Virus record (IMG/VR): IMGVR_UViG_3300033149_004566
Coordinates: 48,863-112,862 of that record
Reading direction: 5' to 3' (one strand)
From: a virus
DNA: 64,000 bases
Shown: piece by piece, positions 6,131 through 60,217 of the stretch
Numbering within the stretch: the first letter of the stretch is position 1
Layout: every line of letters begins with the position of its first letter
The notes under the pieces: generated by a model
Database searches by the model: none
What the model was told of the DNA's origin: nothing
The model's input: only the letters and a program-made list of their open reading frames with translations
Program-made: the position numbers and the translations under genes

Positions 6131-6140
6131 AGGTGTTAAA

Positions 6141-6401: not shown

Positions 6402-6404
6402 TCA

Positions 6405-37047: not shown

Positions 37048-37401
37048 TCATTCATCCAATTCCAATGCTTCTTCAGGATACCAGAAGTCGTTTTCCAGAA
37101 GGTAGAGTCCGTTTGATATCAACACGTCTTTTATTTTAAATGTCTTTCCGATAAATTTCTCCATTTTGCCGTCTATCCAAATGATTCCATCGTGTAGAAG
37201 CACTTTTTTTACTTTTACACTGTCGTTTATTTTAAACATTTTTGGCGATTTATCGGTTATTTCCTGACATGTCGACGAACTACTGCTCTTATCGCACGAC
37301 ATGGCGCATTTTATTTTACATAAATGACAACATCTGTAAGATTTTACGATTTCGTTTTTACAACCATTATTTTTTATATGGATCTTACAATATATATTCA
37401 T
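37048..37401 (-). CDS. Cys-rich plus SH3/KOW-like protein; paralogue of the N-terminus of E2 45118-46341
   Basis: YCKIHIKNNGCKNEIVKSYRCC..C vs YCKKHIKAGGCPNQIIKSYKCC..C; DFWYPEEAL vs NMWFPDEVV. Confidence 0.75.
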   Translation of the reverse strand: MNIYCKIHIKNNGCKNEIVKSYRCCHLCKIKCAMSCDKSSSSSTCQEITDKSPKMFKINDSVKVKKVLLHDGIIWIDGKMEKFIGKTFKIKDVLISNGLYLLENDFWYPEEALELDE

Positions 37402-37402
37402 G

Positions 37403-37756
37403 TTACAACCTTCCTAACACGTCTTTTAACGTGTCTGTTACCGTTAGAGGAATGTTTTTTATTTTTTCTTTACTTTCGGTGTTATCTTTTTTATATTTTA
37501 CGTGTTTCATTACAATGTACCACATCTGTATTATAAATGCGGCCAGATGTGTCAACTTCATGGTATCTCCATTCTCTATCTCTATAAAAGTCTCGAGAAG
37601 AGAATTAAGATCTTCTTCAAATTTACTTCCAGAAAAATCTCCTGCTGTTATGTGTAGCAGGTAAATCATTTCCATGGTTTCCGCAAAGTTTAATTTCTCG
37701 CGGAATAATTTATTTTTTAACTCGTATTTTCTTTTATCAATATCTACGCTTTTCAT
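37403..37756 (-). CDS. Hypothetical protein
   Basis: Coupled ORF. Confidence 0.6.
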   Translation of the reverse strand: MKSVDIDKRKYELKNKLFREKLNFAETMEMIYLLHITAGDFSGSKFEEDLNSLLETFIEIENGDTMKLTHLAAFIIQMWYIVMKHVKYKKDNTESKEKIKNIPLTVTDTLKDVLGRL

Positions 37757-38142
37757 GTTCTATCACGCATTATATTTAATATGTTTCTATCATTATTTAT
37801 TTTTTTTACCATATATTTAAATATGGTATCTTCGGATAAGTGTGTTATTATGACCGATGGATTACTTAAGGCACACATGATGTTTTCTTCGGTCGGGTTT
37901 TCATCGCAAATGTATGAACAATCCTTGCACGGATTGCATGATTTGCAATAATATTCGAGAGCGGCCTTGATAAATAAGTCTATGATTATCGAACCAGTAT
38001 TTTTCTTGAATCTGGTAATCATCCCGAAAAAATCTCCATCTGTTATTCTTTTATTATTCGGTTGTTTACCAGACATCTTACATATTATTAAGTTTCCATA
38101 TAAATTATAAATGATGACATTTGTTATTTCCACAATTATCAT
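37753..38142 (-). CDS. Cys-cluster family A protein
   Basis: YYCKSCNPCKDCSY. Confidence 0.75.
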   Translation of the reverse strand: MIIVEITNVIIYNLYGNLIICKMSGKQPNNKRITDGDFFGMITRFKKNTGSIIIDLFIKAALEYYCKSCNPCKDCSYICDENPTEENIMCALSNPSVIITHLSEDTIFKYMVKKINNDRNILNIMRDRT

Positions 38143-38507
38143 CCTTCTACAGTTCTATAAATTTTGAGCAAGCGTCTTATTTCCGGAATCGTAAGCTCGT
38201 CAATAATATCTTCTATCTGGAACTCATCGAGATAGTTTTCAATGTTTCCCCATGTGTTTTCGACGATCTTTATCAGATCATCATGGTTGCATCTTGCCGG
38301 CAGCGTGCATTTTCTACCGGCACATATACGACAGTTTTTTACATGGGGATTATTATATATTATCGAACACACGTCATATTTGGTCATCAAATTTGTCTTT
38401 TCTATTATAAATTTAACGATGTCTGAAATAGCGTCTTGATCGTATTCATCTTTTATGAACACTTTTTTTAATATTATGTTGCCAGACAATATTTCCATGC
38501 ATATCAT
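38139..38507 (-). CDS. Cys-cluster family A protein (divergent)
   Basis: NCRICAGRKCTLPARC. Confidence 0.65.
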   Translation of the reverse strand: MICMEILSGNIILKKVFIKDEYDQDAISDIVKFIIEKTNLMTKYDVCSIIYNNPHVKNCRICAGRKCTLPARCNHDDLIKIVENTWGNIENYLDEFQIEDIIDELTIPEIRRLLKIYRTVEG

Positions 38508-38872
38508 GTATTCATCTCCACCAGATATTTCATGATTAGATAGTCGAGCGGCAATTTTTCAGTTATTTTGTCCTTTGACACGAACTTCAATATTGATTTC
38601 ACGTCGTAATATTCTCTTATGACAATACTAAATGGCGTTGTAGTGTAGTCGATCTCAACCAGATGACAGTCCAGACATTTTTTACAATTAAACCAATAGC
38701 ATTCTATTTCTCTCATTAGCATATCTCCGTATTTTTTTTGTATTTTTTTCCAATCATTGAAATCTCTTGACGCTTGCCTGATCTCCAAGTAAACGTAATA
38801 TCGTTCGGCTTTTACTGAAGTTCTCTCCATGATGGCATTTTCTTTGTATATTTTACAAGTTACAACGTTCAT
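38504..38872 (-). CDS. Cys-cluster family A protein
   Basis: ECYWFNCKKCLDCH. Confidence 0.7.
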   Translation of the reverse strand: MNVVTCKIYKENAIMERTSVKAERYYVYLEIRQASRDFNDWKKIQKKYGDMLMREIECYWFNCKKCLDCHLVEIDYTTTPFSIVIREYYDVKSILKFVSKDKITEKLPLDYLIMKYLVEMNT

Positions 38873-39200
38873 GATAATACTCCAGTAAGATTTTGTTGTC
38901 TATACTTTTTAATCTGCGCTGCTCGGGTATTTCGATTATTACTGCCGTTGCTCCGATAAAGTAGTACACGATATCGTGTAAAGTTAGTCCGCTGGCGTTA
39001 AAATAATTACAATATTCACACTTGTAGCATTCATCGAGTCTAAGATCACATGAAAGGACGTTTCCTATGATCTTAGATGTTAACAGATGGTGTCTGCGCA
39101 ATATGATGAAAATTTTTTCCGCAATGACGTTGATATAACGCATAACGTTTTTTGATAATATGTTTAAGGAATTCTTGAAGTCTATCACTTCAATTTTCAT
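38853..39200 (-). CDS. Cys-cluster family A protein
   Basis: SCDLRLDECYKCEYCNYFNAS. Confidence 0.75.
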   Translation of the reverse strand: MKIEVIDFKNSLNILSKNVMRYINVIAEKIFIILRRHHLLTSKIIGNVLSCDLRLDECYKCEYCNYFNASGLTLHDIVYYFIGATAVIIEIPEQRRLKSIDNKILLEYYHERCNL

Positions 39201-39532
39201 CTTATTGCCCCCGTTTTTCTAAGATATGCTTTCTTCAATTGTTTTTTAGAGAAACGTTTGAATATGTATTTTAAATCGACATGTTGTAATAATGCCCGCG
39301 GAGTGTAAACGGTATATATGATGTCTTCGAGTCCTTCGTAAAGGTTAATGTTGATGTAATCACAATCATCGCATGCTAACGGGCAGTCATCGCATAAATA
39401 TTCATATACCGCTTTTTTTATTTCCGGGTTTATTACCGATAAAACCCTAATGTTGACTGAAAATACGTCTGTGCTCTTACTAGATGCAGTTATTATATTT
39501 TTATAGGTTTCATTTAGAGATATCTTTAACAT
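39197..39532 (-). CDS. Cys-cluster family A protein
   Basis: YEYLCDDCPLACDDCDY. Confidence 0.75.
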   Translation of the reverse strand: MLKISLNETYKNIITASSKSTDVFSVNIRVLSVINPEIKKAVYEYLCDDCPLACDDCDYININLYEGLEDIIYTVYTPRALLQHVDLKYIFKRFSKKQLKKAYLRKTGAIR

Positions 39533-39830
39533 TATAATCGACCATTAAATTAATATCAGATAGATATTTTAATATTAACTCTTTTCCTATGCATGTAAGT
39601 AAGATTTCTACGTTAAATATCGCGTATATCATCTTTCTCAAGCTGAAAAACGAGTTAAAATCGGCTCCATCACAATCGTCACACTTGTCGCAATTTTCAC
39701 ACAATTTTTCATACACTATTTTTTTCATGTCGGTTTTTGTCATCGTGATAATCAATTGTATTAATTTTATAATGTTGCCAGACGACATTAATCTATTTTT
39801 ATGTATCTCACAATATATTATTTTTATCAT
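39510..39830 (-). CDS. Cys-cluster family A protein
   Basis: YEKLCENCDKCDDCDG. Confidence 0.78.
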   Translation of the reverse strand: MIKIIYCEIHKNRLMSSGNIIKLIQLIITMTKTDMKKIVYEKLCENCDKCDDCDGADFNSFFSLRKMIYAIFNVEILLTCIGKELILKYLSDINLMVDYNVKDISK

Positions 39831-40125
39831 TATAATCGACTATCAAGATTTCATCGTGCAAGTGTTTTAATATTTCCGACTTTCCTATAAAAGAAAGCAC
39901 GGTTTTTATATTGTATATATCATATATCAATTTTTTCAGGTCTAAAATAACCCTCATGTTTAATCCATCACATACATCACACATATCACATTCGTTGCAA
40001 TAATCTGGAATTGCTTTTTTTAATGCATAACGAAGATCGTAAATGACTGCAAGCCCCTTTAATTCAAAATCGTTTTTTTTGGACTGTAATTTCAAATTTT
40101 TATGATACAGGATTATATAATTCAA
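39808..40125 (-). CDS. Cys-cluster family A protein
   Basis: DYCNECDMCDVCDG. Confidence 0.78.
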   Translation of the reverse strand: MNYIILYHKNLKLQSKKNDFELKGLAVIYDLRYALKKAIPDYCNECDMCDVCDGLNMRVILDLKKLIYDIYNIKTVLSFIGKSEILKHLHDEILIVDYNDKNNIL

Positions 40126-40126
40126 C

Positions 40127-40438
40127 TCACTCCACTGTCCTCAATTCCAGTTCGTTTAACAGGTCTCCGGTTTTTAATTTCTCGAGGATGTCTTTCACGT
40201 TTATATGTTTTAATACGTTCAAAAAACCAAATACATAATATATCATGTAGAAAATAGATTTATTGCGGCTATCCACGAATTCGCATCTCTCACACATGTT
40301 ACATTTGTTACAATAATCCTGAAATATAGTTATCTTGACAGCTGGATGCATGTACATGGGATCGACAATTAATGAGATTGACGAATTGTCTAAGGACATA
40401 AATTTCAAGTTTAAATATTTAGTTCTCAATATTTTCAT
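40127..40438 (-). CDS. Cys-cluster family A protein
   Basis: DYCNKCNMCERCEF. Confidence 0.78.
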   Translation of the reverse strand: MKILRTKYLNLKFMSLDNSSISLIVDPMYMHPAVKITIFQDYCNKCNMCERCEFVDSRNKSIFYMIYYVFGFLNVLKHINVKDILEKLKTGDLLNELELRTVE

Positions 40439-40779
40439 ATCGTCGCATCCGTAAGACGATTTAATAAGTAATCAGTGTCAATATTTTTGAGCAGAATTGT
40501 TTTCTCTATGCATGTTATTATGTCAAATAATTCAAAATAATCGTTTACTATTTGTCTGATTGTCATAAAAGATGCATCAAAATATTCACAGTTATCACAT
40601 CGCACGCAATAGTTACAAATATTATCCCAGAGCACGTCGTAATACTCCGTGCTTCCAAAAAATTCACTTGTAATTAACATGTATGATAACAACTTGTATA
40701 CGCTTGCTCTATCATCAAGACCCACTGATATTTTTTCGCCACTCATATTTTGCACGATATCGACAAACATAATTTTCAT
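40435..40779 (-). CDS. Cys-cluster family A protein
   Basis: NICNYCVRCDNCEYFDAS. Confidence 0.78.
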   Translation of the reverse strand: MKIMFVDIVQNMSGEKISVGLDDRASVYKLLSYMLITSEFFGSTEYYDVLWDNICNYCVRCDNCEYFDASFMTIRQIVNDYFELFDIITCIEKTILLKNIDTDYLLNRLTDATI

Positions 40780-41120
40780 TAACCATGCTCCTCCAAGTGT
40801 TGCATTAATTTTTTCGTGCTCAGATATTTTAGCATTGTTTTTTTATCCACATAATTCATAATTTCATATATATCAAAATATTCGTATATAATATCTCCTA
40901 AATACATTGCAGCGGCGTTGAAGTAGTCACAGTCGCTACATATTTCACAACTGTCACACACGCCACTAAATTCATCATGTATCATGGAGTACAATTTTTC
41001 GCATCTAATTGCATTCAGAAAGAAACCAATATTTTCACATTTGATGACGTTTGACTGCAATCTTTTCAGGTTTCTTACATCCAAATCATGAATTACGGAT
41101 ACGGACATTGCCATTTTCAT
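40779..41120 (-). CDS. Cys-cluster family A protein
   Basis: VCDSCEICSDCDYFNAA. Confidence 0.78.
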   Translation of the reverse strand: MKMAMSVSVIHDLDVRNLKRLQSNVIKCENIGFFLNAIRCEKLYSMIHDEFSGVCDSCEICSDCDYFNAAAMYLGDIIYEYFDIYEIMNYVDKKTMLKYLSTKKLMQHLEEHG

Positions 41121-41485
41121 GCTATCGTCGCCCTTTCAAAATAAGATTTTAACATGTCGGTGGACACGTGATCGAGCAACACGCGCTTGCTCCATTTTGA
41201 TGCAATGTGTTTTAAGATCTCATAATCGCCAAATTTACTATATATGATGTTATCAAGTGATGGATCGGTTGCATCAAAAAAATTACAGTAAATGCATTTA
41301 TCACATTTATAACATATATATTTTTTAATAAATTCTCTATCGTGTATCATTCTATCTGGATCTGCGATTTTTCTCGACAGATAATATATGATGTCGTCGT
41401 CGTCTACATTTAACATATAAAGATAATAATCGGTTTTTAAGTTTCTTGTTGTCAAAAGCATCCCATCAAACAATAATATTTTCAT
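41117..41485 (-). CDS. Cys-cluster family A protein
   Basis: YICYKCDKCIYCNFFDAT. Confidence 0.78.
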   Translation of the reverse strand: MKILLFDGMLLTTRNLKTDYYLYMLNVDDDDIIYYLSRKIADPDRMIHDREFIKKYICYKCDKCIYCNFFDATDPSLDNIIYSKFGDYEILKHIASKWSKRVLLDHVSTDMLKSYFERATIA

Positions 41486-41795
41486 CCTTTTTCACCAATG
41501 CGTTCGTATCGATGTGTTTTAGTATGGCAGTTTTTTCCACGTATTTCAATAATTCGTGGCTATCAAACATCAAATATATCATTTCCTCCAAGCTTTTAAA
41601 TATGGAGTAGTTGATATATTCGCATCCCACGCATGTTTGACATTGCCCACATTTCACGTGCTTGAAGGTGGCAAGCGCGTCTTCTTCTAACATGGCGTCT
41701 TGAAAAGGCTCTAAAAAATACGGATCGATACCGTTATATTTACAAAATTTAAAAGATAGATTTTGTTTATCTGTGCAAAATAACAATACTTTCAT
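41466..41795 (-). CDS. Cys-cluster family A protein
   Basis: VKCGQCQTCVGCEY. Confidence 0.78.
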   Translation of the reverse strand: MKVLLFCTDKQNLSFKFCKYNGIDPYFLEPFQDAMLEEDALATFKHVKCGQCQTCVGCEYINYSIFKSLEEMIYLMFDSHELLKYVEKTAILKHIDTNALVKKDENIIV

Positions 41796-42135
41796 TCTTC
41801 AACCTCCATAAAGTCCGCAGTGAATCATTTGACAAGTGCGAAAGCATGTGAATTTTTTTGACGTGGGCTAAAATTAATCTGACTCCGAACACCGAATATA
41901 TTATTTCTCTTAGAATTTCATTGCCGTCAAAGTATTCGCATCTATTGCATTTATCACAGTTGCAGCACAGCACTTCGTACAGCTTTTCAAATAACATGTC
42001 ATTGTTAAAAAATCCCACGCATGATAACGTTTTTTTCATGCCATTATGGCCCAATAGATACGATGAATGTTTCCGTATCAGTATTTCAAGAGCAGCTTTA
42101 TTGTGTATGATGTATTTCAACAATTTAATATTCAT
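41767..42135 (-). CDS. Cys-cluster family A protein
   Basis: YEVLCCNCDKCNRCEYFDG. Confidence 0.78.
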   Translation of the reverse strand: MNIKLLKYIIHNKAALEILIRKHSSYLLGHNGMKKTLSCVGFFNNDMLFEKLYEVLCCNCDKCNRCEYFDGNEILREIIYSVFGVRLILAHVKKIHMLSHLSNDSLRTLWRLKNESIVILHR

Positions 42136-42505
42136 GGCAAGCTGTCCCGTATCTTTGTAATAAAACTTCGTTGGATATTCTATGCATCATTTCTGATGCC
42201 GTTAAACCAACATTATTTTTTAGTTCTTCGAGAATATTTCTTGTATAGTATATGTTTTTTACTACATATTCTAATGGAAACATGTTTACGAGAATTCTGC
42301 CCCGTTTACAGATACAAACATTACATAATTTATCACTCAGCTCTTTTGAAAAATATTTTAATTTTCTATAAACACGTTTTATCGGCCACATGTTTACGTG
42401 ATCGTTCAATATGAGATGATATTTTGAACGATTATTGTTATTAAATTCTGTTATTATTGCTTTCATTTTTTCTTTCACCAAAAAAGTGGAGTTATAAAAC
42501 TCCAC
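42125..42505 (-). CDS. Cys-cluster family A protein (partial motif)
   Basis: DKLCNVCICK. Confidence 0.65.
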   Translation of the reverse strand: MEFYNSTFLVKEKMKAIITEFNNNNRSKYHLILNDHVNMWPIKRVYRKLKYFSKELSDKLCNVCICKRGRILVNMFPLEYVVKNIYYTRNILEELKNNVGLTASEMMHRISNEVLLQRYGTACHEY

Positions 42506-42857
42506 GCCTGATTAACTCGTTTTTTATGTCGTCTATCGAAAGAAAATCCAACATGTCTTCGACGTCTATGGCATCCAATAGTTCGTCCATTGTAATTCTC
42601 CCGTCCATTAGAGTCGTGACGAAGTGGTGGGCGTCGTATAATACCTTATCACAGTTTTCACACCTGTCGCAATTTTCACAGAAAACGTCCTCGATCGCTC
42701 CGCGTAATACTGACAGCAATTTACTTTCGTCGTCTTCGAGGACATAATATATATCGTGTATGAATTCCTCCATCTCCTCATATAAAGACAGGTTGTAGAT
42801 TTTTTTGAATAATTTTTTATCTTTGCCTACCGTGGTGTTATATATAATCACGTACAC
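42492..42857 (-). CDS. Cys-cluster family A protein
   Basis: VFCENCDRCENCDK. Confidence 0.78.
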   Translation of the reverse strand: MYVIIYNTTVGKDKKLFKKIYNLSLYEEMEEFIHDIYYVLEDDESKLLSVLRGAIEDVFCENCDRCENCDKVLYDAHHFVTTLMDGRITMDELLDAIDVEDMLDFLSIDDIKNELIRRGVL

Positions 42858-43312
42858 TACAGCACCTCAACGTATTCATTGCAATAGAAGCAAAAATACT
42901 TCTTTTCTCTTCTATCATACGCGGATTTTTTTCCGCACACGACACACGACCTTTTATGAAGATCTTCCACGCTATCACATGGTATCGGCTCCAATTTTTC
43001 AAACAAACTGTCGTCGCGTTTTGATATTCCTTGTACTATGTTTACCAACATGTGCCATATTTTTGCTACCTGTATTGGGTCGTATTCATATTTTAATGCG
43101 TCGAGCACGTATGCTTGTGTTTTATTTTTTATAATCACGTGTCCGAGATATTCTGATTTGGCAATATTCTCCGGCGTGTTCCATGGATGAGACCAGAACA
43201 GTATGGCGGATAATCTGACGTCATAATTTCCGCCTTTTTCAACGTCTCTTTTTTCGCAATACCTGAAAATCTTGTCTATGGTGTTGTAATAATACATGCC
43301 TAGGAAATTCAA
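42857..43312 (-). CDS. Hypothetical protein with C-terminal zinc ribbon
   Basis: CVVCGK..YFCFYCNEY. Confidence 0.7.
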   Translation of the reverse strand: MNFLGMYYYNTIDKIFRYCEKRDVEKGGNYDVRLSAILFWSHPWNTPENIAKSEYLGHVIIKNKTQAYVLDALKYEYDPIQVAKIWHMLVNIVQGISKRDDSLFEKLEPIPCDSVEDLHKRSCVVCGKKSAYDRREKKYFCFYCNEYVEVL

Positions 43313-43983
43313 GACGTGAGCACCATGAAATTTTCTACATCATAATCATATCTGAAATGATTTTTGTCCGCGTTATCACGGATTTCATTAAATATCAGGG
43401 CGCAGGCGGTTGCTGCGACTTGATTCAACGTGAAAATTATGGTTTGCTGTGTACACGGAATGTCAAGTGTTTTTCTATCTAATGTCTCTGCCCAATTATC
43501 GATTTTTTCTGGTGTCACGTAGAACACCGCGCAGAATAGTCCTCCTGTTCTTGCGTCGATTATAGTTCTCTTGTTTTTTAAAAGGACGTCTTTCACTATT
43601 TTTCTAGAGGTCATCGAGTCGACTCCGAGAACGACAAAGTCGCACTCTTTGAACTCATTCACGTGGTTTTTTCCGAACAATTCGTTGTACTTGATGACTT
43701 CAACTCTTCCAGGAGATACTTGCTTGATTCGGTTTTCAAGAGCGTCTACCTTTGGAAGATCTACTTCGTCCCTGAAGAAGAATTGATTCGGAAGGTTGTG
43801 CTCTTCGATCACGTCATCATCAAACAGCACGAATTTTCCGACGCCCATTTTTGCCAGCATCGTGCATATGATGGAGCCGACAGAGCCACATCCTATCATC
43901 ATGACGCTTACATCCTGTATTGTTTCGGGATTAATCCATCCCGATTGCCTCAAAAAGGTATTTATAATGTTCATCTTTATCAA
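43309..43983 (-). CDS. ThiF/E1-like Ubl-activating enzyme (system 1)
   Basis: FLRQ, IGCGSVGS, FDDDVIEEHNLPNQFF, PKVDAL, GVDSM..R, IDARTGG, candidate catalytic Cys in IPCT. Confidence 0.93.
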   Translation of the reverse strand: MIKMNIINTFLRQSGWINPETIQDVSVMMIGCGSVGSIICTMLAKMGVGKFVLFDDDVIEEHNLPNQFFFRDEVDLPKVDALENRIKQVSPGRVEVIKYNELFGKNHVNEFKECDFVVLGVDSMTSRKIVKDVLLKNKRTIIDARTGGLFCAVFYVTPEKIDNWAETLDRKTLDIPCTQQTIIFTLNQVAATACALIFNEIRDNADKNHFRYDYDVENFMVLTS

Positions 43984-46341: not shown

Positions 46342-46356
46342 ACAAAATCACCACGT

Positions 46357-46638
46357 TTATCGAGGTAAAACTGTCATAAAAATGGGAAATAGGGGATTTT
46401 TATCATTTGTAATTCTTGTAGATTTGAAAGAAATTATTCCTTCCGGAATATCTTTTACGAGCGTGCTCTTGTTAATTATTTTTCCAGATATTACCATGGG
46501 TTGAGTACCATCTTTTACACTGATCTTTTCATCATCTATTAATTGTTCAACGACCTGACTACAGGTCATATCCTCGTCAAATTCGACAGTATAGATGCCA
46601 ATGCCCCAAATGGCGAAGTTAAGTTTTCTTTTTGTCAT
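46357..46638 (-). CDS. Ubiquitin-like beta-grasp protein, copy lacking the conjugation Gly
   Basis: Paralogue of 46643-46930; ISFKSTRITNDKNPLFPIF. Confidence 0.7.
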   Translation of the reverse strand: MTKRKLNFAIWGIGIYTVEFDEDMTCSQVVEQLIDDEKISVKDGTQPMVISGKIINKSTLVKDIPEGIISFKSTRITNDKNPLFPIFMTVLPR

Positions 46639-46930: not shown

Positions 46931-46935
46931 TTTTT

Positions 46936-52684: not shown

Positions 52685-53456
52685 ACGCTTTTATCACGTC
52701 CTTTATTATTTCATCGTACATTTTTGACATCATCATTATGTCTTCTTCTTTCATGAATCGGTTTATCTTCTTGATTATTTTTATTTTTTCGTCATATTTT
52801 TCAGTCACCGGCGGCGTCCCGAAATATATGTAAGGTATTCCGCGCACGACCGTCTCTTTACTCTTTCCGATCTTCTTGTTTTTCACGGAATTCATCGTGA
52901 AATATGATGAAGACAACATGGATATTTTTTCGCTGAAATATGTTTGCATTTGCGGACGATTTGCGCCGCCGTTAATCATAAAAAATGGAAACGGATAATT
53001 CTTCCTGTCAAATTTCGGAAGGCTCCTGTCGTCTGTCGTTATAGTTTCCACGGAGTACGCCTCGTCGTTTATTATTTCATAGATATTCAACTCGTTGTTG
53101 TTATATATCATGAATATGGGCGTCGTCGCAGTTAAAGATTCCCATCTTATGAAATTTTTCATATCGGATTTTGACGGCACTGTTTCGCTCGCATGTGAAT
53201 GAGCGTGTCCAACAACATGCAATCCTATCGGTAATCCCAATTCTATATCGTGTCTCCGTTTTGATGACGATATGACGTGATCTACGTCATTTTCAATGTA
53301 TTTCATCTGTACGACGTCATATATTCTTATCGTGTTATTAAAATCCGTTCCTATGAGATAGAATGCGATCTCTTTTCTCGCCAATTTCGATAGAAATCGC
53401 ATTTTTTTCACGATGTAATCCGGAATGATCACTTTTTCGATTGCCAAAAAGAACAT
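52677..53456 (-). CDS. JAB/MPN metalloprotease (system 2)
   Basis: KEIAFYLIG..VVGHAHSHASETVPSKSD. Confidence 0.9.
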   Translation of the reverse strand: MFFLAIEKVIIPDYIVKKMRFLSKLARKEIAFYLIGTDFNNTIRIYDVVQMKYIENDVDHVISSSKRRHDIELGLPIGLHVVGHAHSHASETVPSKSDMKNFIRWESLTATTPIFMIYNNNELNIYEIINDEAYSVETITTDDRSLPKFDRKNYPFPFFMINGGANRPQMQTYFSEKISMLSSSYFTMNSVKNKKIGKSKETVVRGIPYIYFGTPPVTEKYDEKIKIIKKINRFMKEEDIMMMSKMYDEIIKDVIKAYE

Positions 53457-53902
53457 CTCCCTTCTGCAGATAATCCGTCTTTCTTACAGATATGATATAT
53501 TTTTCCAGTGACATCGCTGACACTCGTGACGTGCCTGCAGTTCTTACAGGAAGAGTCCGTGAACACCACTTTGAATTTTTTTATGGCTTCATCGAGAGCG
53601 TCCATCAGGATTTCATCGACGCTCCCGAGAAGATCGGGAGTCAAGATTTTAAAGGAAGAGTTTTCATTTTGAGTTATTTCTCCCACCGTTTTCTTGTCCC
53701 ACTCGTCATCTATGATGTTGTTTTCATTGTCTACTAATTGTACTGTATCTGGTATGGGATAATTTCCCCTAAAAGATGTCAATGCATCGACAATGGCATC
53801 TATCATTGGCGAATTATTGTCCGCCACGATCGTTACACCTTTCCTCGCTCCGACGAGCGAGAATTTTATTTTGACTTTATCTCCTAATTTTAACACCTCC
53901 AA
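53429..53902 (-). CDS. UFM1-like ubiquitin-like protein fused to a C-terminal Cys4 domain
   Basis: KVKIKFSL..KTVGEI..NSSFKILTPDLLG|S parallels UFM1 KVSFKITL..QTAGNV..GSELRIIPRDRVG|S; then CKNC..C..C. Confidence 0.72.
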   Translation of the reverse strand: MEVLKLGDKVKIKFSLVGARKGVTIVADNNSPMIDAIVDALTSFRGNYPIPDTVQLVDNENNIIDDEWDKKTVGEITQNENSSFKILTPDLLGSVDEILMDALDEAIKKFKVVFTDSSCKNCRHVTSVSDVTGKIYHICKKDGLSAEGRCSFWQSKK

Positions 53903-54329
53903 TAATAAGGCCGTAAACCATGATCATGGACACGACCCACGCAATGCCGTGCTCTTTCGGCTTGAACTTGGGAAGTTTTACATTTCCCTTAAAACATAAT
54001 CTTTCGCTGCTCCTATACATGTTGAAAGATAAGTTTTTTTTACCGTATTCCACGGCACTCCACACGTACTCCAACATGTTCACGCGCGGGTAGTCCGGCG
54101 TCAACATTATTGGAACGAGCATGTTGTTTCCATTACGATAAAAGTGCACCTTTACCCAATATACCGGAAATTTGGGATAATTATCCCAATAAACCTTCTT
54201 TAAGAATAACTTTTTATCGAAGGTTCTCGGTATTTTTTGTAGGTTTTCTTCCTCTTCACGCTTGCGTAGCTCCCATTCATCATCAAATGGACTGCACATT
54301 ATCTTATGTTTCTTGAGATACTGGAACAC
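53877..54329 (-). CDS. UFC1-like E2 conjugating enzyme
   Basis: SPFDDEWELRKREE..L, LTPDYP, NMYRSSERLCF, PKEHGIAW parallel UFC1 GPRD..W..RLKEE..L, IPITYP, KMYRGGKICL, PKFGLAH. Confidence 0.75.
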   Translation of the reverse strand: MFQYLKKHKIMCSPFDDEWELRKREEEENLQKIPRTFDKKLFLKKVYWDNYPKFPVYWVKVHFYRNGNNMLVPIMLTPDYPRVNMLEYVWSAVEYGKKNLSFNMYRSSERLCFKGNVKLPKFKPKEHGIAWVVSMIMVYGLIIGGVKIRR

Positions 54330-54461
54330 CTTTTTTGACTCTCTTTTCTTTTTTTAATATGTTTAATATTGTTGGGTATTCATATTCAATGATGCTTCTT
54401 CTCCGCAATGACGATGCTTTCATTAGCTCTTTTTGATACAATATTTTCAGCTTTCTCAGAT

Positions 54462-54683
54462 TCAAGTCCTATCCGGCCTCTGATTTATTGAAAATTCATC
54501 AATGATGTCATCGCAGATGTTTCTCCACAACGACATCTCCTCGTAAAACATTGATATTGATTGTGTCAATATCGTTCCAATAAAATCGAACAGTCGTTCG
54601 ACTTGCGCCGTGTCGTATTTTTTATCGATGAGGAGTATTTCATTAAACAATATCATCAGTGCTTCCTTTCTCAAGGAATTCAT
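54462..54683 (-). CDS. Hypothetical protein
   Basis: Coupled small ORF. Confidence 0.55.
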   Translation of the reverse strand: MNSLRKEALMILFNEILLIDKKYDTAQVERLFDFIGTILTQSISMFYEEMSLWRNICDDIIDEFSINQRPDRT

Positions 54684-54843
54684 TTTTATACTCCTCCAGT
54701 ACAGTTATCATGTACCATATGGGAAAATTCGTGAGGTCTATGCCGAGAAATTTGCTTCTCGCGTTGATCTCGTCATCATTGCCCCTGCATTCCTGTTGGA
54801 GAAATGCATACAACTTTGAAATTTTTACATCAGACATCATCAT
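54643..54843 (-). CDS. Hypothetical protein
   Basis: Coupled small ORF. Confidence 0.5.
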   Translation of the reverse strand: MMMSDVKISKLYAFLQQECRGNDDEINARSKFLGIDLTNFPIWYMITVLEEYKNEFLEKGSTDDIV

Positions 54844-55367
54844 CGTTTCACGTAAAGCGGCGGTTGTGTCTTTTCACCGGACGCAATGACCGCGTCTTTA
54901 AGACCGATAAGATGTAATGGAATGTTTTTATTGAACGATCCAGTCCACATTACATTGTACTTGACGCGTATTAATCCTTCGTCAAAATTTCTCCTGGCGG
55001 AAAACTTCTCTATAGAAATTGTTCTATCATTGAAATTTCTCACAACTCTCATAAAAGAGTTGAGTACCCAAAATCTGGCTGTTATTGTGCCATTTTTATC
55101 AATTGCATACGGCTTCAGTCTTTTGCCAGTCGTGCTGCATACGACTATTTTTGTTTTGTCATGTACCGCTTCGTATGCTTCGATGTATATCTTGAAATCT
55201 CCACCGATACCTCTCGGTATTATGAAAAATTGCTCTCCTGGTTTCGTTTTTTTCTTAAACGTTTCCTTTAATATTAATCCTACCTTCCCAGAGCTGAGGA
55301 TCTTTATGTTGTCGTATTCGGAAACGTACTTTAACTTGTTAGTCACGAGCTCTACTCTTGGACTCAT
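54840..55367 (-). CDS. Hypothetical protein
   Basis: Coupled ORF. Confidence 0.65.
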   Translation of the reverse strand: MSPRVELVTNKLKYVSEYDNIKILSSGKVGLILKETFKKKTKPGEQFFIIPRGIGGDFKIYIEAYEAVHDKTKIVVCSTTGKRLKPYAIDKNGTITARFWVLNSFMRVVRNFNDRTISIEKFSARRNFDEGLIRVKYNVMWTGSFNKNIPLHLIGLKDAVIASGEKTQPPLYVKR

Positions 55368-55612
55368 GTATATAACCTCGAGTTGCTCTTGACTTTTTCA
55401 TCTTTTTTGCCTTTTATTTTTATGTATTCTTCGAGCATTTGCTTCAATGCACCTATTGATGAGAATATAAGTATGAGCTTCTCATCGAACTCGCTTATCT
55501 TGCAATTTTCATCGGTACATTTATTTTTTTCATGCTCTATCATTTTTACCAACACTTCACTCACTTCTTTATGAGTGTAAATGACTGTTTTTAACAATTC
55601 ATCAATGTCCAT
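55364..55612 (-). CDS. Hypothetical protein
   Basis: Coupled ORF. Confidence 0.6.
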   Translation of the reverse strand: MDIDELLKTVIYTHKEVSEVLVKMIEHEKNKCTDENCKISEFDEKLILIFSSIGALKQMLEEYIKIKGKKDEKVKSNSRLYT

Positions 55613-55838
55613 TTTTTCTACCCCCGGAAAGCCACTTTAAATCGACCTTTCCAGTTATATCTGATTTTTTAAGCCATGAGGTCTGTTCCTCTAGCTTATA
55701 AATAAATAGTTTTACTTTGTCCAAGTCTTGTAATATCTTTACAATAGTATCATCGAAAGATAGGACTTGTACCTTGTGCTCGTTATCTTCTGATAACAAT
55801 AACACCTCTTTTATTACATTGTTAATCTTCTTTTCCAT
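55602..55838 (-). CDS. Hypothetical protein
   Basis: Coupled ORF. Confidence 0.6.
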   Translation of the reverse strand: MEKKINNVIKEVLLLSEDNEHKVQVLSFDDTIVKILQDLDKVKLFIYKLEEQTSWLKKSDITGKVDLKWLSGGRKNGH

Positions 55839-56095
55839 CTATCTATCATCCCTCTCATTCTAGTTTCTCCATAATTGATTATGTAGTGCACGAAATCCGG
55901 CATATTCAAAATTATGAAATGGCCATTTTCATAAGTAATCTTTATGCCGTATATCTCGTCTTGCAATATTTTTGCAATCGGAGATAACATTCCGTGTATG
56001 CTAAATTTACACAACGTTGCGTCGCCGTTTATTGTGACGACACACAACATGTTTTTTTGCGCGAGATCCAATATTTTTTCAAGCGTTTTGGTCAT
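55814..56095 (-). CDS. Hypothetical protein
   Basis: Coupled ORF. Confidence 0.6.
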   Translation of the reverse strand: MTKTLEKILDLAQKNMLCVVTINGDATLCKFSIHGMLSPIAKILQDEIYGIKITYENGHFIILNMPDFVHYIINYGETRMRGMIDRWKRRLTM

Positions 56096-56534
56096 ATATA
56101 TCTTTGTCCAACTCCTCGAGTGTTTCTATAAATGATTTTCCGAATGCTATTGGATTGTTTGTGAAAAAATATTCAATAGCATCCTCTAACGTGTCAAATG
56201 TCCTCTCGTCCTCTTCTGTGGTTGTTATCACAGATATTTTTTCCAGCTTGTTGCAACAATCTTTTGGTATTCTACCGACCATGTTTCTAATTCTACTCGG
56301 AATTGCCGTATTCTTCTCCAATTTTATATCATCATACGGCAACACCATTTTTATCGGCGTTCCGTAACCCCAATAATCTCCGTTAGCATAGAGCATCGGA
56401 TTTTCCTTCATGTCGTCTTTTGAAACGCTGTTGAACAACACTCCCATTATTTTTTCTTCTGGCGAATGGTATATTAATTCATTGGGATATCTATTCCATT
56501 TATTTTTTCGCACGTTCGGTATTTTTTTCTTCAT
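56079..56534 (-). CDS. Hypothetical protein
   Basis: Coupled ORF. Confidence 0.65.
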   Translation of the reverse strand: MKKKIPNVRKNKWNRYPNELIYHSPEEKIMGVLFNSVSKDDMKENPMLYANGDYWGYGTPIKMVLPYDDIKLEKNTAIPSRIRNMVGRIPKDCCNKLEKISVITTTEEDERTFDTLEDAIEYFFTNNPIAFGKSFIETLEELDKDIYDQNA

Positions 56535-57057
56535 TAATCATTTTCTCCATTTCTATCAATTTTTTTGCCTGCAAGTCTATTGTTCTCCGCAGGTCTTTTA
56601 TCACCGCGTCTTTTTCCTTTACTGATGCCTTTACGGCATCTTTAATCTCTTTTCGCGCGAGCTTTTCTATTGATTTAATTTTTTTATCGTAATATTCGTT
56701 GGATCTTCGCGCGAAGTCATCGATCTTTTTTTCGCACTCATTTATTACCTCGTTAAGGTAATTTAATGCATTGTCCCTTTCTTTTAATGATTCATTTATT
56801 AATTTAAGAGCATCATCTTTGGATTTTTCAATTGACTGAATGGAAAACCTCAACAACGACTTTATGAGAGTGTTCATCAGGAACACGATATCGTCCAGAC
56901 TTTCCTCCAGCTCAATTGCCCATCCGTACCATTCATCCTTATCGAACGTTATCTTTTCAAATGGAACGAATGAAAATCTCGCGAGCGAATACAGACCCTG
57001 TATTGCATCTCCGAGAGAGACGATGATGTCTTTTATCCTATTTTTTTCTTCATCCAA
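56500..57057 (-). CDS. Coiled-coil protein
   Basis: Heptad-rich; GGAGG upstream. Confidence 0.65.
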   Translation of the reverse strand: MDEEKNRIKDIIVSLGDAIQGLYSLARFSFVPFEKITFDKDEWYGWAIELEESLDDIVFLMNTLIKSLLRFSIQSIEKSKDDALKLINESLKERDNALNYLNEVINECEKKIDDFARRSNEYYDKKIKSIEKLARKEIKDAVKASVKEKDAVIKDLRRTIDLQAKKLIEMEKMINEEKNTERAKK

Positions 57058-57069
57058 TTAACATGCCTC

Positions 57070-57579
57070 CTAAAAAACAATTGCGCTTGGCTTGCTTTTA
57101 TTATAACAATTAATACACATGCGTTGTATCATAACAATTCCAAATGGATTTATCGTGACTATGAATATTTTTGCCCTCATGTTGCAACAAATACCATCTC
57201 GCGTTTCGCTGCACTGAAAAATCGTGGAATTTGATTTATAATATACACGCGCACTGTATCCTTTGCTGACACTCACGTCTTTTATTTTTTTAAACTCAGA
57301 ATTCATTTCGTCAAATGCTTCATTTTGTAAAAATTCCCTAGCAAGTTCATCGGTAAATATTATAATTGCTACCAAGCAATTATAACACGTCCTTTTTATT
57401 TCTTCGCTTTTTAAGTTTACAATTACATACTCGACATGGTGTTGTTTGCAGATGTCACAGGTCTCAAAATTTTCTACAATCCTCGAAAAATGCTTGTAAA
57501 TGGCCATTGTTTTGTCGGAATACAATAGGTTATATTCCTTCGGTTTCATCATATATACACGACCTAAAGTGCCTGTCAT
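57070..57579 (-). CDS. Double zinc-finger family B protein
   Basis: TCDIC..TCYNC..CCNMRAKI..MCINC. Confidence 0.78.
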   Translation of the reverse strand: MTGTLGRVYMMKPKEYNLLYSDKTMAIYKHFSRIVENFETCDICKQHHVEYVIVNLKSEEIKRTCYNCLVAIIIFTDELAREFLQNEAFDEMNSEFKKIKDVSVSKGYSARVYYKSNSTIFQCSETRDGICCNMRAKIFIVTINPFGIVMIQRMCINCYNKSKPSAIVF

Positions 57580-58003
57580 AACAAATAGGACATAAATAAT
57601 TTCTAGACATCGTGTTGTTATCTATGTTCTCATAGATCACTATTATTTTTGCCCTCATGTTGCACGTTTTATTTTCTTGTATGTGATTACATTGACGCGA
57701 TATCATGTCTGGATCATAAAATACTGTAACTTGAACATCACTACCATATCTAAAAGAATTTATCATTTTCTTGTTAGATATAGTAAACTCTTTAAGAAAA
57801 GCTCCTGAGACGCGAATTCCCATGGTGTATATTCTTGCATAGAAACATATTTCACACATCCGTAATTCTTTTCCACTTTTGTACTTGATTTTTATTCTTG
57901 TATAATTACTGCAAAAATTACACGCTTCATGTCTTTTATCATGGCGAAGAGTGTAAAATATCCTACTTATTTCCACTCTATCGTCCTTGTACAACGTGTT
58001 CAT
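57530..58003 (-). CDS. Double zinc-finger family B protein
   Basis: ACNFC..MCEIC..TCNMRAKI..LCPIC. Confidence 0.78.
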   Translation of the reverse strand: MNTLYKDDRVEISRIFYTLRHDKRHEACNFCSNYTRIKIKYKSGKELRMCEICFYARIYTMGIRVSGAFLKEFTISNKKMINSFRYGSDVQVTVFYDPDMISRQCNHIQENKTCNMRAKIIVIYENIDNNTMSRNYLCPICYDRHFRSCIYDETEGI

Positions 58004-58412
58004 CAGTTATCTCCTCGTAATGTATCATACAGAGATATATCAACGTGAATTTTATTTCGGCATTGTGCGGCTCCACGTCTATCAGTACCACCTTTGCCTT
58101 CATGTTGCAATACATGCCATTCTCACTGGCATTACAATTATATAATTCCAAGTTTGGCATGTAGTTTGCCATATAATAACCACAAGGAGGTATTATTGGT
58201 TTGGCTTGCAATTGTTTTTTTATAAATGACAAGAGCTCGTCTTCGTCTTGATATTCCTCTATGAACGCGTCCACGCTCATCATTGACGTTTTGTCCCCCA
58301 TTTTTATATATATCACGTCAGTTGGACATTTTTTATTAAATGTTTTATATACGACGACATCATCGTCTTCGTATAGTATGTTGATCACGTTAGATCTAAT
58401 ACCACATTCCAC
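57978..58412 (-). CDS. Family B protein (first finger degenerate)
   Basis: YNCN..YCNMKAKV..LCMIH. Confidence 0.75.
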   Translation of the reverse strand: MECGIRSNVINILYEDDDVVVYKTFNKKCPTDVIYIKMGDKTSMMSVDAFIEEYQDEDELLSFIKKQLQAKPIIPPCGYYMANYMPNLELYNCNASENGMYCNMKAKVVLIDVEPHNAEIKFTLIYLCMIHYEEITDEHVVQGR

Positions 58413-58840
58413 CTCATGATTTTTTTAAAGCATTTAATGCATAAGATCTTATCAATGTAAATCGTGGTTTCATTTTTATACTTTTTGTGTCTAGTTATTT
58501 TTGCGACAAAATTACAGTTAATGTTAGAACACTTGATGGCATTCATTTTATCATGATAAAACGTCAAGATTTCGTACGTTTCTCTGTCTTCTATGGAGAT
58601 TGGATCCATATTTTTCGCGTTTATGTATTCTATTTGCTCGTAAAACCATTCGAGCATTTTTACATTTCTTGATTTGATAATAAAATCTTCCAGGCAGTCC
58701 CAACAATAACTTATGCGTTCAAGGCCGCGAAATACCGTAAAACTGGCACTGCATGTCATGCATACATTACACGTTAAATTGACACCATGTGTTTTTTTTA
58801 TGATGTTGTCTTCATCGCGATATACGACATTTAAAATCAT
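58385..58840 (-). CDS. Double zinc-finger family B protein
   Basis: TCNVC..YCWDC..NCNFVAKI..LCIKC. Confidence 0.78.
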   Translation of the reverse strand: MILNVVYRDEDNIIKKTHGVNLTCNVCMTCSASFTVFRGLERISYCWDCLEDFIIKSRNVKMLEWFYEQIEYINAKNMDPISIEDRETYEILTFYHDKMNAIKCSNINCNFVAKITRHKKYKNETTIYIDKILCIKCFKKIMRWNVVLDLT

Positions 58841-59265
58841 TTGTCCAACCTCGGTTCATATTCTCTTTTGAAATGCATTGGACATATGTAAAACATTTTC
58901 ATATATTTAACGCGTGAGTTAGTAATGCATGCCGTTATTTTCGCTTTCATGTTGCAACCCAACACGGCACACGGCTGTATCTCCATGTCATGATTGTAAA
59001 AAAATATGATATCGCCGTATCTTTCACGTATCGTGCCCAATTTTACGTGATCCAAGCTCGTTTGCTCGTGAAACCACGCGTTTATTTCCGGATAGGTTTC
59101 GTCGGTAAAGCGATCGAAGCAAAATGAACAGAGGTTAGTGGTTTTTCCATCACTATTCATGACGAATGACGCAAATCTCGAGCAAACATCACAAAAGAGG
59201 GTACTTTTATTATTAAAAGTCTTATAAATGGTAGTATCACCAGCAATATATATCGGATTTTTCAT
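58837..59265 (-). CDS. Double zinc-finger family B protein
   Basis: FCDVC..LCSFC..GCNMKAKI..ICPMH. Confidence 0.78.
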   Translation of the reverse strand: MKNPIYIAGDTTIYKTFNNKSTLFCDVCSRFASFVMNSDGKTTNLCSFCFDRFTDETYPEINAWFHEQTSLDHVKLGTIRERYGDIIFFYNHDMEIQPCAVLGCNMKAKITACITNSRVKYMKMFYICPMHFKREYEPRLDK

Positions 59266-59722
59266 CCTTGATCATCTCGTAAAGCATGTTAAAATGCATC
59301 GGACACATGAAGATTGCATCCGTTGGATCAATGCCCGTTTTTGTTCTTTCTACCGACATTATATATATACGGGCTCTCATGTTGCATCCGACAATGAAGC
59401 ACAATTTAATTGGTTCGTCCTTGCAAAGAAAGTGATAATATTTATATGATGTGGCTTTTGACCTGACAATTCCCTTGTATTCGGCGTTTTCTATTTGATT
59501 TTTTACACGCTTCCACATCCACGAACCGATCTCGGGATACAGTTCGTCCAAAAATTCCAATATACAAAGACGACAAAGCAACAACGAACAATCGCGATTT
59601 ACCATGTAATGGGCTATTTGACCGCACGAGATGCAAAAATGTGTCCGTCTTTTCGTGTGATAATAAATATAGTACAACGTAATTTCTCCTTCGTATATCA
59701 TGTTTACGACCAGATCATTCAT
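59237..59722 (-). CDS. Double zinc-finger family B protein
   Basis: FCISC..LCRLC..GCNMRARI..MCPMH. Confidence 0.78.
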   Translation of the reverse strand: MNDLVVNMIYEGEITLYYIYYHTKRRTHFCISCGQIAHYMVNRDCSLLLCRLCILEFLDELYPEIGSWMWKRVKNQIENAEYKGIVRSKATSYKYYHFLCKDEPIKLCFIVGCNMRARIYIMSVERTKTGIDPTDAIFMCPMHFNMLYEMIKDEKSDIYCW

Positions 59723-60158
59723 ACAATCTCGACCTATAAAATCTATTAAAACATTTCGGACAAATGTAGTTCACGATCAATCCATTCTTGTAACCAAACA
59801 ACGTTTTATATTCAATTATTTTGGCCCTAAAGTTGCATTTGGATTTGACCGTGCACATCTGGGACGTCAATTTCTCGTGATAATAAAACTCTATGGTGCC
59901 ACAATTGTGTAGATGAAAACCCATAAATTTTGCGCCAACTATGTCCCCGTATTGAATGTTCATCCATCTCATCGCATCATCATTACTAGCTAATTGTAGT
60001 TCCAGACAATGGCGACACAACTTTATTTTTTTTCCATCGTCGTACACGAACCTTGTCGTTTTAAAATCACATAATTCACAAAAATACGGTTTAAAACAGA
60101 ATTCATTGTAAGCGATGTAAATTTTAATGAGTTTATCGTCGTATACCAGATTGAGCAT
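59715..60158 (-). CDS. Double zinc-finger family B protein
   Basis: FCELC..LCRHC..KCNFRAKI..ICPKC. Confidence 0.78.
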   Translation of the reverse strand: MLNLVYDDKLIKIYIAYNEFCFKPYFCELCDFKTTRFVYDDGKKIKLCRHCLELQLASNDDAMRWMNIQYGDIVGAKFMGFHLHNCGTIEFYYHEKLTSQMCTVKSKCNFRAKIIEYKTLFGYKNGLIVNYICPKCFNRFYRSRLYE

Positions 60159-60217
60159 TTCATCTTCTCCATAATTTTAAATAAAAACGCGATGGATCCG
60201 TGATCCATCAGATCGCA

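Follow-up and report, generated by a model that had tools for sequence, protein, structure and literature searches.

Does a virus carry its own machinery for tagging proteins with a ubiquitin-like modifier and, if so, one such machinery or two? This question is raised by a block of genes at positions 37048-60158 of the window, the 64,000-nucleotide (nt) stretch of viral DNA that we analyzed, which is the last 64 kb of the 112,862-bp IMG/VR record IMGVR_UViG_3300033149_004566. A sequence-only reading had described the block as two complete cascades, each with its own ubiquitin-like modifier (Ubl), E1, E2 and JAB protease, together with an AAA+ gene, a vWA gene and two arrays of zinc-finger paralogues, all on one strand. 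The listed genes and their order were borne out: 48 minus-strand open reading frames (ORFs) fill the block, each overlapping or abutting the next, and the largest gap, upstream of 59715-60158, is 59 nt. Identical packing runs upstream to 62943, with 8 more ORFs and thus 56 in total over 37048-62943. All three genes taken for E1s (E1, E1' and a second E1) encode ThiF proteins scoring above the PF00899 cut-off, and both proteins taken for JAB proteases have an intact JAMM motif. We propose that the block is the accessory end of a ~70-kb run of leftward genes in an archaeal tailed virus and that it probably holds two ubiquitin-like activation modules of separate origins, module A (50446-54329) and module B (42857-46939), the latter acting as a cascade and the former containing a split E1, as detailed below. 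Features are located in Table 1.

Module B encodes, in this order and co-oriented, two Ubl candidates (Ubl-b and Ubl-b'), an E2 candidate (E2b), a JAB protease (JAB-b) and an E1 (E1b). E1b shows the GxGxxG and DDD motifs, the sequence N-L-P-N-Q with Asn at the usual Arg site, and Cys177. In addition to ThiF, it matched the Cap2-type E1 model of PADLOC (4.6e-19) and the 6A-MBL cap2_3 model of NCBIfam (6.3e-17), and its best PDB match was UBA5 (3.5e-11), followed by ThiF/MoeB, MccB (4e-9), TcdA (1e-7) and PaaA. JAB-b has N-terminal CxxC ribbons, after which comes the JAMM core formed by H234-S-H236, S244 and D247 (HSH-x7-S-x2-D). Because the listed JAB-b ORF overlaps E2b by 77 nt, its true start may lie further downstream.

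We scanned IMG/VR with an E1b-type alignment as seed, and the scan returned nine loci (L009-L017). In six of the nine (L009-L014), the genes for Ubl, large E2-like protein, JAB and minimal E1 follow the order of module B, the Ubl of L010-L012 being placed after E1; L015 and L017 also have all four genes, but E1 precedes JAB there, and L016 has no such cassette. The cassette E1s are 190-260 amino acids (aa) long and 25-34% identical to E1b, JAB-b is 30-37% identical to the JABs of L013, L014, L015 and L017, and in most of the cassette Ubls 0-3 residues stand beyond a final G, GG or GN. In Ubl-b, Gly82 (K-Q-G) aligns with this G/GG end and is followed by a 16-aa tail. The E2-like proteins share with E2b the signature H-x6/7-C-x-G, in which His stands 6-7 residues before Cys, and an NPxD-type motif ~30 residues after it. 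Since other viral contigs repeat both the gene order and the E2 motifs, module B appears to be a complete set of Ubl, E2, JAB and E1, and its assignment to a recurrent, uncatalogued family of virus-borne cassettes is well supported by these sequence comparisons. Our literature searches found no paper describing a virus-borne cassette of this kind. Relatives of E1b also occur in cultured phages of Flavobacterium (FpV4-group), Bacteroides and Xanthomonas, where they are annotated as 'thiamine biosynthesis ThiF' and lie beside hypothetical proteins, and a scan of genome collections with E1b-type sequences yielded only two bacterial ThiF loci. Unlike the cassettes of L009-L017, module B has a duplicated Ubl with a long non-Gly tail, its E2 Cys-rich N-module also exists as a separate gene, 14-15 Cys4 paralogues follow it, and a second, unrelated module lies upstream.

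The cassettes themselves vary. The E2-like protein of L009 (L009:3073-4989; IMGVR_UViG_3300045973_000245) has a Cys-rich C-terminal tail with 4-5 CxCxxCxxC-x-E-[FL] repeats, and the Ubl just upstream of its gene ends K-G-G-I-A. In the jumbo-phage cassettes of L010 and L011 (208-kb and 186-kb viral contigs; ~2000-7300), two E2-like paralogues stand in tandem, and a two-domain Ubl ending K-G-N is placed after E1.

The E2 candidate deserves closer description. Residues 1-116 of E2b comprise a Cys-rich N-module and a small beta-rich region; a helical linker leads from there to the E2-like core, and the protein ends in a CxxC...CxxC ribbon. Its core contains His328-x6-Cys335-x-Gly and N367-P-E-D, and an alignment across 11 viral homologues showed that the C and the G are invariant and that the H is at least 90% conserved. 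We take the His...Cys and NPxD elements to be the counterparts of HPN...Cys and PNPxDP in canonical E2s. BLAST linked E2b to the L009 protein at E 0.005 over a segment spanning the Cys region. An AF2 model built from the 11-sequence alignment (A3) consists of a helix, a 6-strand beta-meander, a Cys loop and 2-3 helices, which is the element order of an E2. With this model, Foldseek placed UBE2S, Ubc13 and Cdc34 at the top (E ~0.5-1.8), VIA gave RWD, UbcH5B, Ubc13 and UEV (Z 3.0-4.1, root-mean-square deviation 3.3-6.2, 92-115 residues), and both lists were headed mostly by E2, RWD and UEV domains. A wide VIA search was dominated by the long N-terminal helix; its one non-helical match (Z 4.9, 97 residues) fell in the C-terminal region of a chain of 1,679 residues from a ribosome/UFM1-ligase/RQC entry, presumably the RWD domain of listerin. 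The best BFVD matches of E2b were uncharacterised phage proteins of 420-590 aa, and its homologue search returned essentially itself only. Neither UQ_con nor Prok-E2_A to E (Pfam, NCBIfam) matched E2b at E<=10, and the E2-family profile A3 found nothing significant among PDB sequences.

These features are consistent with a cascade in which JAB-b would trim the C-terminal extension of Ubl-b, probably after Gly82, E1b would adenylate the freed Ubl-b carboxylate and may hold Ubl-b on Cys177, and the tag would move to Cys335 of E2b and then to lysines of viral or host proteins. JAB-b might also be able to reverse the mark. Several results weigh against this scheme. Ubl-b and Ubl-b', putative beta-grasp Ubls, both have a tail with L-F-P-I-F and neither has a Gly end; Ubl-b' has Asp at the Gly82 column; and hhalign found a weak likeness between Ubl-b and the cassette Ubls (P=0.0068 over 26 columns, probability 5.6%). 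Ubl-b, Ubl-b' and E2b matched no curated family in Pfam or NCBIfam. The E2b model is of low confidence (pLDDT 54), and both its Foldseek and its VIA scores (Z <=4.1) are below significance. The Arg of N-L-x-R-Q is missing from E1b and from several of its viral relatives: the sequence is NLPNQ in E1b, the E1s of L004/L010, L009, L013 and L014 contribute NLCNQ, NIGCQ, NIGVQ and NIPNQ, and the L005/L015 E1 retains the Arg (NLNRL). Either another residue would substitute for the lost Arg, or the chemistry of these enzymes may differ.

That a second E1-JAB module is present is certain. In module A, overlaps of 8-28 nt link the genes for a candidate E2 (E2a), a candidate Ubl precursor (Ubl-a), a JAB protease (JAB-a) and two ThiF proteins (E1a and E1a'). 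E1a has GxGxxG (G183/185/188), DDD208-210, N-L-N-R219, and Cys337/Cys342 past the crossover region, and its best PDB matches were the active adenylation domains of Uba1, UBA3 and SAE2 (6.6e-9), followed by UBA5. The GxGxxG motif and a DD pair are found in all three ThiF proteins of the block, and the Arg of N-L-x-R-Q is found only in E1a (R219). A 170-aa N-terminal domain is common to E1a and E1a'. In the alignment of the two, E1a' retains GxGxxG, has K-N-I-A-A-G in place of N-L-N-R and has no Cys at the columns of Cys337 and Cys342. Because it is without the Arg motif and the Cys, we read E1a' as probably a catalytically dead partner subunit. The two proteins would then form a heterodimeric E1, E1a being active and E1a' degenerate, like SAE1/SAE2 or NAE1/UBA3. 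JAB-a contains E29, H86-x-H88 and S95-x2-D98, and AfJAMM was its best PDB match, spanning the motif. E1a and E1b are 23-26% identical and the two JABs gave no BLAST match to each other, which supports the earlier claim of two cascades as far as two non-homologous E1-JAB modules are concerned; for the Ubl and E2 of module A the claim is not supported. No homologue of E1a was found in 50,697 phage records, and a database search returned essentially E1a itself and one eukaryote-type E1 fragment.

The two upstream ORFs of module A had been called a UFC1-like E2 and a UFM1-like Ubl. Profile, pairwise and fold tests gave these labels no support. The models for UFC1 (PF08694), Ufm1 (PF03671) and UQ_con found no match in the whole genome at E<=10. 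BLASTP of E2a against residues 80-149 of human UFC1 gave 10/41 identities with 12 gaps (E=0.58). Compared by hhalign, E2a showed no match to the viral E2 profile, and Ubl-a none to the cassette Ubls. Neither protein had a match in Pfam, PHROG, PADLOC, NCBIfam or PDB sequences. For E2a, no homologue was found among 1.8 billion representative proteins, and an exhaustive phmmer search gave repeat-protein artefacts only. The structure models are of low confidence (for E2a, AF2 single-sequence pLDDT 38 and ESM Atlas pLDDT 0.41; for Ubl-a, Atlas pLDDT 0.45 with no informative neighbours). The UFM1/UFC1 label thus came from by-eye resemblance alone and should be dropped, and the statement that each cascade has its own Ubl, E1, E2 and protease is supported for module B only.

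What speaks for a tagging role of these two proteins is their position and patterns read by eye, which counts against the full scheme for module A. Residues 1-93 of Ubl-a have an alternating hydrophobic pattern (beta-alpha-beta) and end L-L-G93, a 64-aa extension follows with a helix and then a Cys/His cluster (CxxC..H.C..C), and the gene lies immediately ahead of the JAB gene. We lean slightly towards the view that Ubl-a is a Ubl precursor, from whose 157 residues JAB-a would free the ~93-residue N-terminal domain ending Leu-Leu-Gly. E2a contains the stretch P-D-Y-P and only one plausible Cys; that this 150-aa protein may act as the E2 of module A is a tentative and rather doubtful assignment.

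Table 1. Genes and gene groups discussed in the text (window positions unless stated otherwise; ORFs, open reading frames).
Feature	Position	Strand	Evidence
Ubl-b, 98 aa, and its tandem paralogue Ubl-b', 93 aa (65% identity)	46357-46939	-	alignment with cassette Ubls
E2b, candidate E2, 407 aa	45118-46341	-	motifs common to E2-like proteins of L009-L017
JAB-b, 404 aa as listed	43980-45194	-	PADLOC JAB 3.7e-9; Prok-JAB 21.0 bits (Pfam cut-off 25)
E1b, minimal single-domain E1, 224 aa	43309-43983	-	ThiF 3.7e-32, 111.8 bits (PF00899 cut-off 28.1)
151-aa protein, C-terminal CxxC-x16-CxxC zinc ribbon	42857-43312	-	no family match
Candidate E2a, 150 aa, candidate Cys112 in R-L-C-F	53877-54329	-	position; 26-nt overlap with next gene
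Candidate Ubl-a precursor, 157 aa	53429-53902	-	by-eye sequence reading
JAB-a, JAMM/MPN+ metalloprotease	52677-53456	-	Prok-JAB E 1.9e-4, 21.7 bits, below 25-bit cut-off
E1a, active-looking adenylation enzyme	51530-52684	-	ThiF 6.7e-20, 71.7 bits
E1a', E1a paralogue (33% over 177 aa)	50446-51540	-	ThiF 1.3e-8, 34.7 bits
MoxR/CobS-like AAA_5 ATPase, 271 aa	49638-50453	-	AAA_5 2.6e-8, 34.4 bits (cut-off 22); phrog_249 8.7e-10
vWA protein, 536 aa, C-terminal vWA	48031-49641	-	CobT_C E 1.6e-3, 18.6 bits, below cut-off 21; phrog_1576 1e-5
Two ORFs, 224 aa and 154 aa; second with CxxC...CxxC ribbon	46936-48056	-	no family match
Array A, 7 tandem paralogues, 142-169 aa	57070-60158	-	BLAST links, alignment A5
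Nine small ORFs, 53-185 aa (56500-57057 coiled-coil-like)	54304-57057	-	
Array B, 14 tandem paralogues, 103-129 aa, plus marginal 38139-38507	37753-42857	-	BLAST and hidden Markov model
Cys-free ORF	37403-37756	-	ORF list
E2-N module, 117 aa, paralogue of E2b residues 4-116	37048-37401	-	BLAST 32% over 122 aa, E 3e-14
LigD 3'-phosphoesterase and TFIIS/TFS zinc ribbon, fusion	3078-3884	+	profile search (8.1e-16 and 1.2e-17)
Phage_Mu_F and C-terminal TFIIB cyclin repeat, fusion, 752 aa	6405-8663	+	profile search (1.2e-14 and 3.1e-12)
T4 Rnl1-type RNA ligase, ~2.6 kb upstream of locus, same strand	62790-63869	-	1.7e-17
Elf1-like zinc ribbon and glycosyltransferase-2, fusion	genome 27108-27938 (L007:7108-7938), outside window	-	29.6 bits vs 29.8-bit cut-off

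The remaining genes of the block are two arrays of paralogues, an ATPase with its neighbour, and small ORFs. BLAST joined the seven genes that had been called double-Zn-finger paralogues (array A). Their N-terminal site is CxxC...CxxC and their C-terminal site C-x4-9-C-N-[MF]-[RKV]-A-[KR]-[IV]...C-x2-[CH]; the first zinc site is lost in the member at 57978-58412. The run described as about 15 Cys4 paralogues (array B) proved to hold 14 members and one marginal gene: 11 were linked by BLAST, three more by a hidden Markov model (HMM; E 7e-9 to 2e-5), and the last was marginal (E 0.04). Array B proteins vary in their N-terminal half, have CxxCxxCxxC[EDN][YF] as their central core and are conserved in a helical C-terminal region. 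The array A HMM (A5) found only its 7 members genome-wide and the array B HMM (A4) only its 14. The arrays matched no Pfam family, their profiles found nothing significant among PDB sequences, and neither array has a stretch well enough conserved to seed a scan of sequence collections. The gene at the end of the block, which had been read as an E2-N module, indeed matches the N-terminus of E2b (Table 1). Among the nine small ORFs, the three scanned against Pfam (56500-57057, 56079-56534 and 54840-55367) gave no family match. The 59-nt gap at 60159-60217, the only sizeable intergenic gap of the block, contains T-T-T-T-T-A-T-T-T-A-A-A-A and then a GGAG-type ribosome-binding site; this motif could be an archaeal TATA-like promoter for the array A transcription unit.

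The AAA+ gene and the adjacent vWA gene overlap by 4 nt and were likewise confirmed, the ATPase scoring above the AAA_5 cut-off with Walker A (GEPGIGKT at residue 45) and Walker B (IIVLDE at residue 118), and the vWA protein having a MIDAS motif (DGSGS at residue 348) after 340 residues without assignment. Position between the two modules is the only tie of this pair to tagging.

Are the arrays and the ATPase pair part of the tagging machinery at all? They may be ordinary multigene families and a phage CobS/CobT-like pair that happen to lie in an accessory-gene region, a reading to which we give considerable weight, not far short of an even chance. Neither array family was detected by HMM in the related cassette loci L009-L018, and the ATPase matches phrog_249, a common phage family annotated 'porphyrin biosynthesis'. 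Moreover, paralogues within an array are only 15-42% identical and the duplications are therefore old, not a recent accordion coupled to the cascades. On the other hand, the genes are packed so tightly that their translation may be coupled, array B is flanked by E2b and by a copy of the E2b N-module, zinc ribbons are fused to E2b and JAB-b and occur also on the protein after E1b, and the CxCxxCxxC-x-E-[FL] run of the L009 E2-like protein resembles the array B core. The fused ribbons, the N-module copy beyond array B and the L009 repeats give a hint, from sequence features, that the arrays are linked to module B. We also considered array B as a detached copy of the L009 repeats and rejected this: the array B HMM did not detect that region at E<=1, and the likeness is at the motif level only. 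Within our preferred reading of two activation modules, the ATPase pair and the two zinc-finger families would be co-transcribed neighbours and most plausibly partner, adaptor or substrate proteins; that the array proteins are adaptors or substrates is speculation.

The identity of the virus bears on the remaining alternatives. The ends of the record share a 114-bp overlap, which points to a circular assembly. Structural genes, including those for the large terminase (TerL) and a MuF-like head protein, occupy the plus strand from 1 to 36.9 kb, and elsewhere in the genome the minus strand encodes a family-B DNA polymerase (PolB), an anaerobic ribonucleotide reductase, a C5 methylase and sugar-modifying enzymes. 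The TFIIB repeat, the TFIIS ribbon and the Elf1-like ribbon, carried by three proteins, mark the host as archaeal. A domain of TFIIB, the archaeal transcription-initiation factor, is unusual on a virion protein (6405-8663), and the Elf1-like ribbon on a glycosyltransferase-2 protein likewise puts an archaeo-eukaryotic transcription-factor module into an odd fusion.

Public runs containing this DNA were only two, both from one marine-sediment metagenome study; their contigs are identical to window positions 40200-60158 and possibly the window's own source, and no copy-number variants were seen. No RNA run was listed as containing it. Proteins identical to those of the window are also encoded on a 117,419-bp sister contig. 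According to the main text of a preprint by Rambo et al. (bioRxiv 10.1101/2021.07.29.454249), 'Nidhogg' viruses from marine sediment, tied by CRISPR spacers to Helarchaeota (Asgard), have circular genomes with sizes of up to 117.5 kb in that study, those from two samples being 99.98% identical. The same text lists PolB, PrimPol, RNA ligase, a vWA protein, LigD with a TFS-II-like zinc finger, and three ThiF/E1-like genes, for which it suggests that they 'harness Helarchaeota ubiquitin systems' (10.1101/2021.07.29.454249). Our virus has in common with Nidhogg the LigD-TFS fusion, PolB, RNA ligase, the vWA protein, three ThiF/E1-like genes, a circular genome, a size of up to 117.5 kb, two near-identical samples and the marine-sediment habitat. 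On the basis of gene content, habitat and the sister contig, the window very likely derives from a Nidhogg virus or a near-identical one. The preprint labels a Nidhogg protein 'Ro60 with TROVE and vWA domains'; the one vWA protein that we saw is that at 48031-49641, and we could not reproduce the label for it, the Pfam TROVE model having found no match in the genome at E<=10. That an Asgard virus has three E1-like genes was thus already published by Rambo et al. The main text of the preprint never mentions JAB, names E2 and Ubl as host genes only, and does not describe two modules, a dead E1 paralogue, the AAA+/vWA adjacency or the two arrays. New here are the juxtaposition of two unrelated modules, an E1 of eukaryote-like type split into an active and a probably dead protein, and the tight association of both modules with two zinc-finger multigene families in an Asgard virus. 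Further relatives of the virus were not recovered by IMG/VR scans seeded with E1a, TerL and PolB or by a metagenome scan with the E1a/E1a' alignment, which weighs against our reading of the block as a whole, and megablast of 43000-53500 against phages gave no match.

With an Asgard host, module A can be explained differently. Module B alone may be self-contained, with E1a/E1a' and JAB-a acting on the eukaryote-like ubiquitin or Ubl of the host, either charging or stripping it, and the two upstream ORFs being neither Ubl nor E2; for the E1s, this is close to what Rambo et al. proposed in the main text of their preprint (10.1101/2021.07.29.454249). The best solved relatives of E1a are the eukaryotic Uba1, UBA3 and SAE2, its nearest database protein is the eukaryote-type E1 fragment, E2a and Ubl-a are without fold or family support, and Helarchaeota have genes for an E1-like and an E2-like enzyme as well as a ubiquitin-like protein domain, according to the same main text (10.1101/2021.07.29.454249). 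Yet the five module A genes overlap as closely as described above, and Ubl-a, whose pattern ends L-L-G and whose gene comes just before that of a JAB, has the arrangement usual for precursor Ubls. We regard this explanation as less likely than our preferred reading, although it deserves to be kept in view.

For module B, one alternative is a counter-defence device, in which the Cap2/Cap3-like E1 and JAB would undo or misdirect host immunity that depends on conjugation (type II CBASS, 6A-MBL-like). Both E1b and JAB-b do match models of such systems, namely the Cap2 'E1-E2' and 'JAB' models of PADLOC and the 6A-MBL cap2_3 model of NCBIfam, but the matches lie far below the family cut-offs and cover generic catalytic cores only, and the cassette supplies its own Ubl and E2, making this alternative improbable. 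Modification of peptides or small molecules by the ThiF enzymes (MccB/PaaA-type peptides made on ribosomes and modified after translation, TcdA-type reactions or sulfur carriers), with the Cys-rich arrays as precursors or substrates, would suit the matches of E1b to MccB, TcdA, PaaA and ThiF/MoeB, the missing canonical Arg and the fifteen diversified small Cys-rich proteins directly downstream, but it is the least probable of all, given that no sulfur-relay or peptide-tailoring gene was found among the scanned locus proteins, that the array proteins (103-129 aa) have a conserved folded C-terminal half unlike leader-core peptides, and that the cassette relatives retain Ubl-GG, JAB and an E2-like Cys protein without arrays.

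A bolder extension of our reading can be imagined, though it is a long shot: module A might be a virus-borne, eukaryote-style split E1 heterodimer that works with a precursor Ubl of its own and with a divergent E2 of the UFC1 type, and the arrays might supply diversified E3-like adaptors directing the two tags to different host proteins. If this were true, Asgard viruses already ran multi-tag, adaptor-programmed Ubl systems, and viruses could have spread heterodimeric E1s or UFM1-type pathways.

Should module B work as we propose, an archaeal virus would tag proteins with its own ubiquitin-like modifier. In the literature we searched, prokaryotic tagging with an organism's own Ubl was described only for cellular defence (Bil, CBASS, Bub). 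Asgard hosts have eukaryote-like ubiquitin machinery, so module A bears on the viral manipulation of host proteostasis, and an active/dead E1 pair most like eukaryotic E1s bears on the origin of heterodimeric E1s. The published remark on three E1-like genes is thereby developed into two defined gene sets with predicted active-site residues and cleavage sites.

How do the parts of the block compare with known systems? The ATPase pair resembles the MoxR-vWA and CobS-CobT-like pairs in that an AAA_5 ATPase lies directly upstream of a MIDAS-bearing vWA protein; the matches are weak, the vWA profile being below its cut-off, and pairs of this type also occur in phages (phrog_249 match). The predicted E1a/E1a' heterodimer mirrors the pairing of active and degenerate adenylation domains in SAE1/SAE2 and NAE1/UBA3, but the viral pair has no separate catalytic-Cys or UFD domain. 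With respect to the UBA5-UFM1-UFC1 pathway, UBA5 is among the PDB matches of E1a, whereas UFC1 and Ufm1 models and pairwise BLAST give the neighbouring ORFs no support. Type II CBASS and 6A-MBL are matched at their E1 and JAB cores only (61 and 24 bits vs a 320 cut-off), there is no E2-E1 fusion, and no CD-NTase or MBL was found among the scanned locus proteins. A further parallel is Bil (BilABCD), a bacterial anti-phage ubiquitination operon with the gene order Ubl, E2, JAB, E1 (PMC11601596). Module B is like Bil in gene order and in its inferred chemistry. It differs in that E1b is a single 224-aa ThiF domain, unlike the Bil E1 described in PMC11601596, and in that no Bil-type model of PADLOC or NCBIfam was matched; module A differs from that E1 in having its active and degenerate domains in two genes and no Cys domain. 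Bil serves the defence of the host, whereas module B is carried by a virus.

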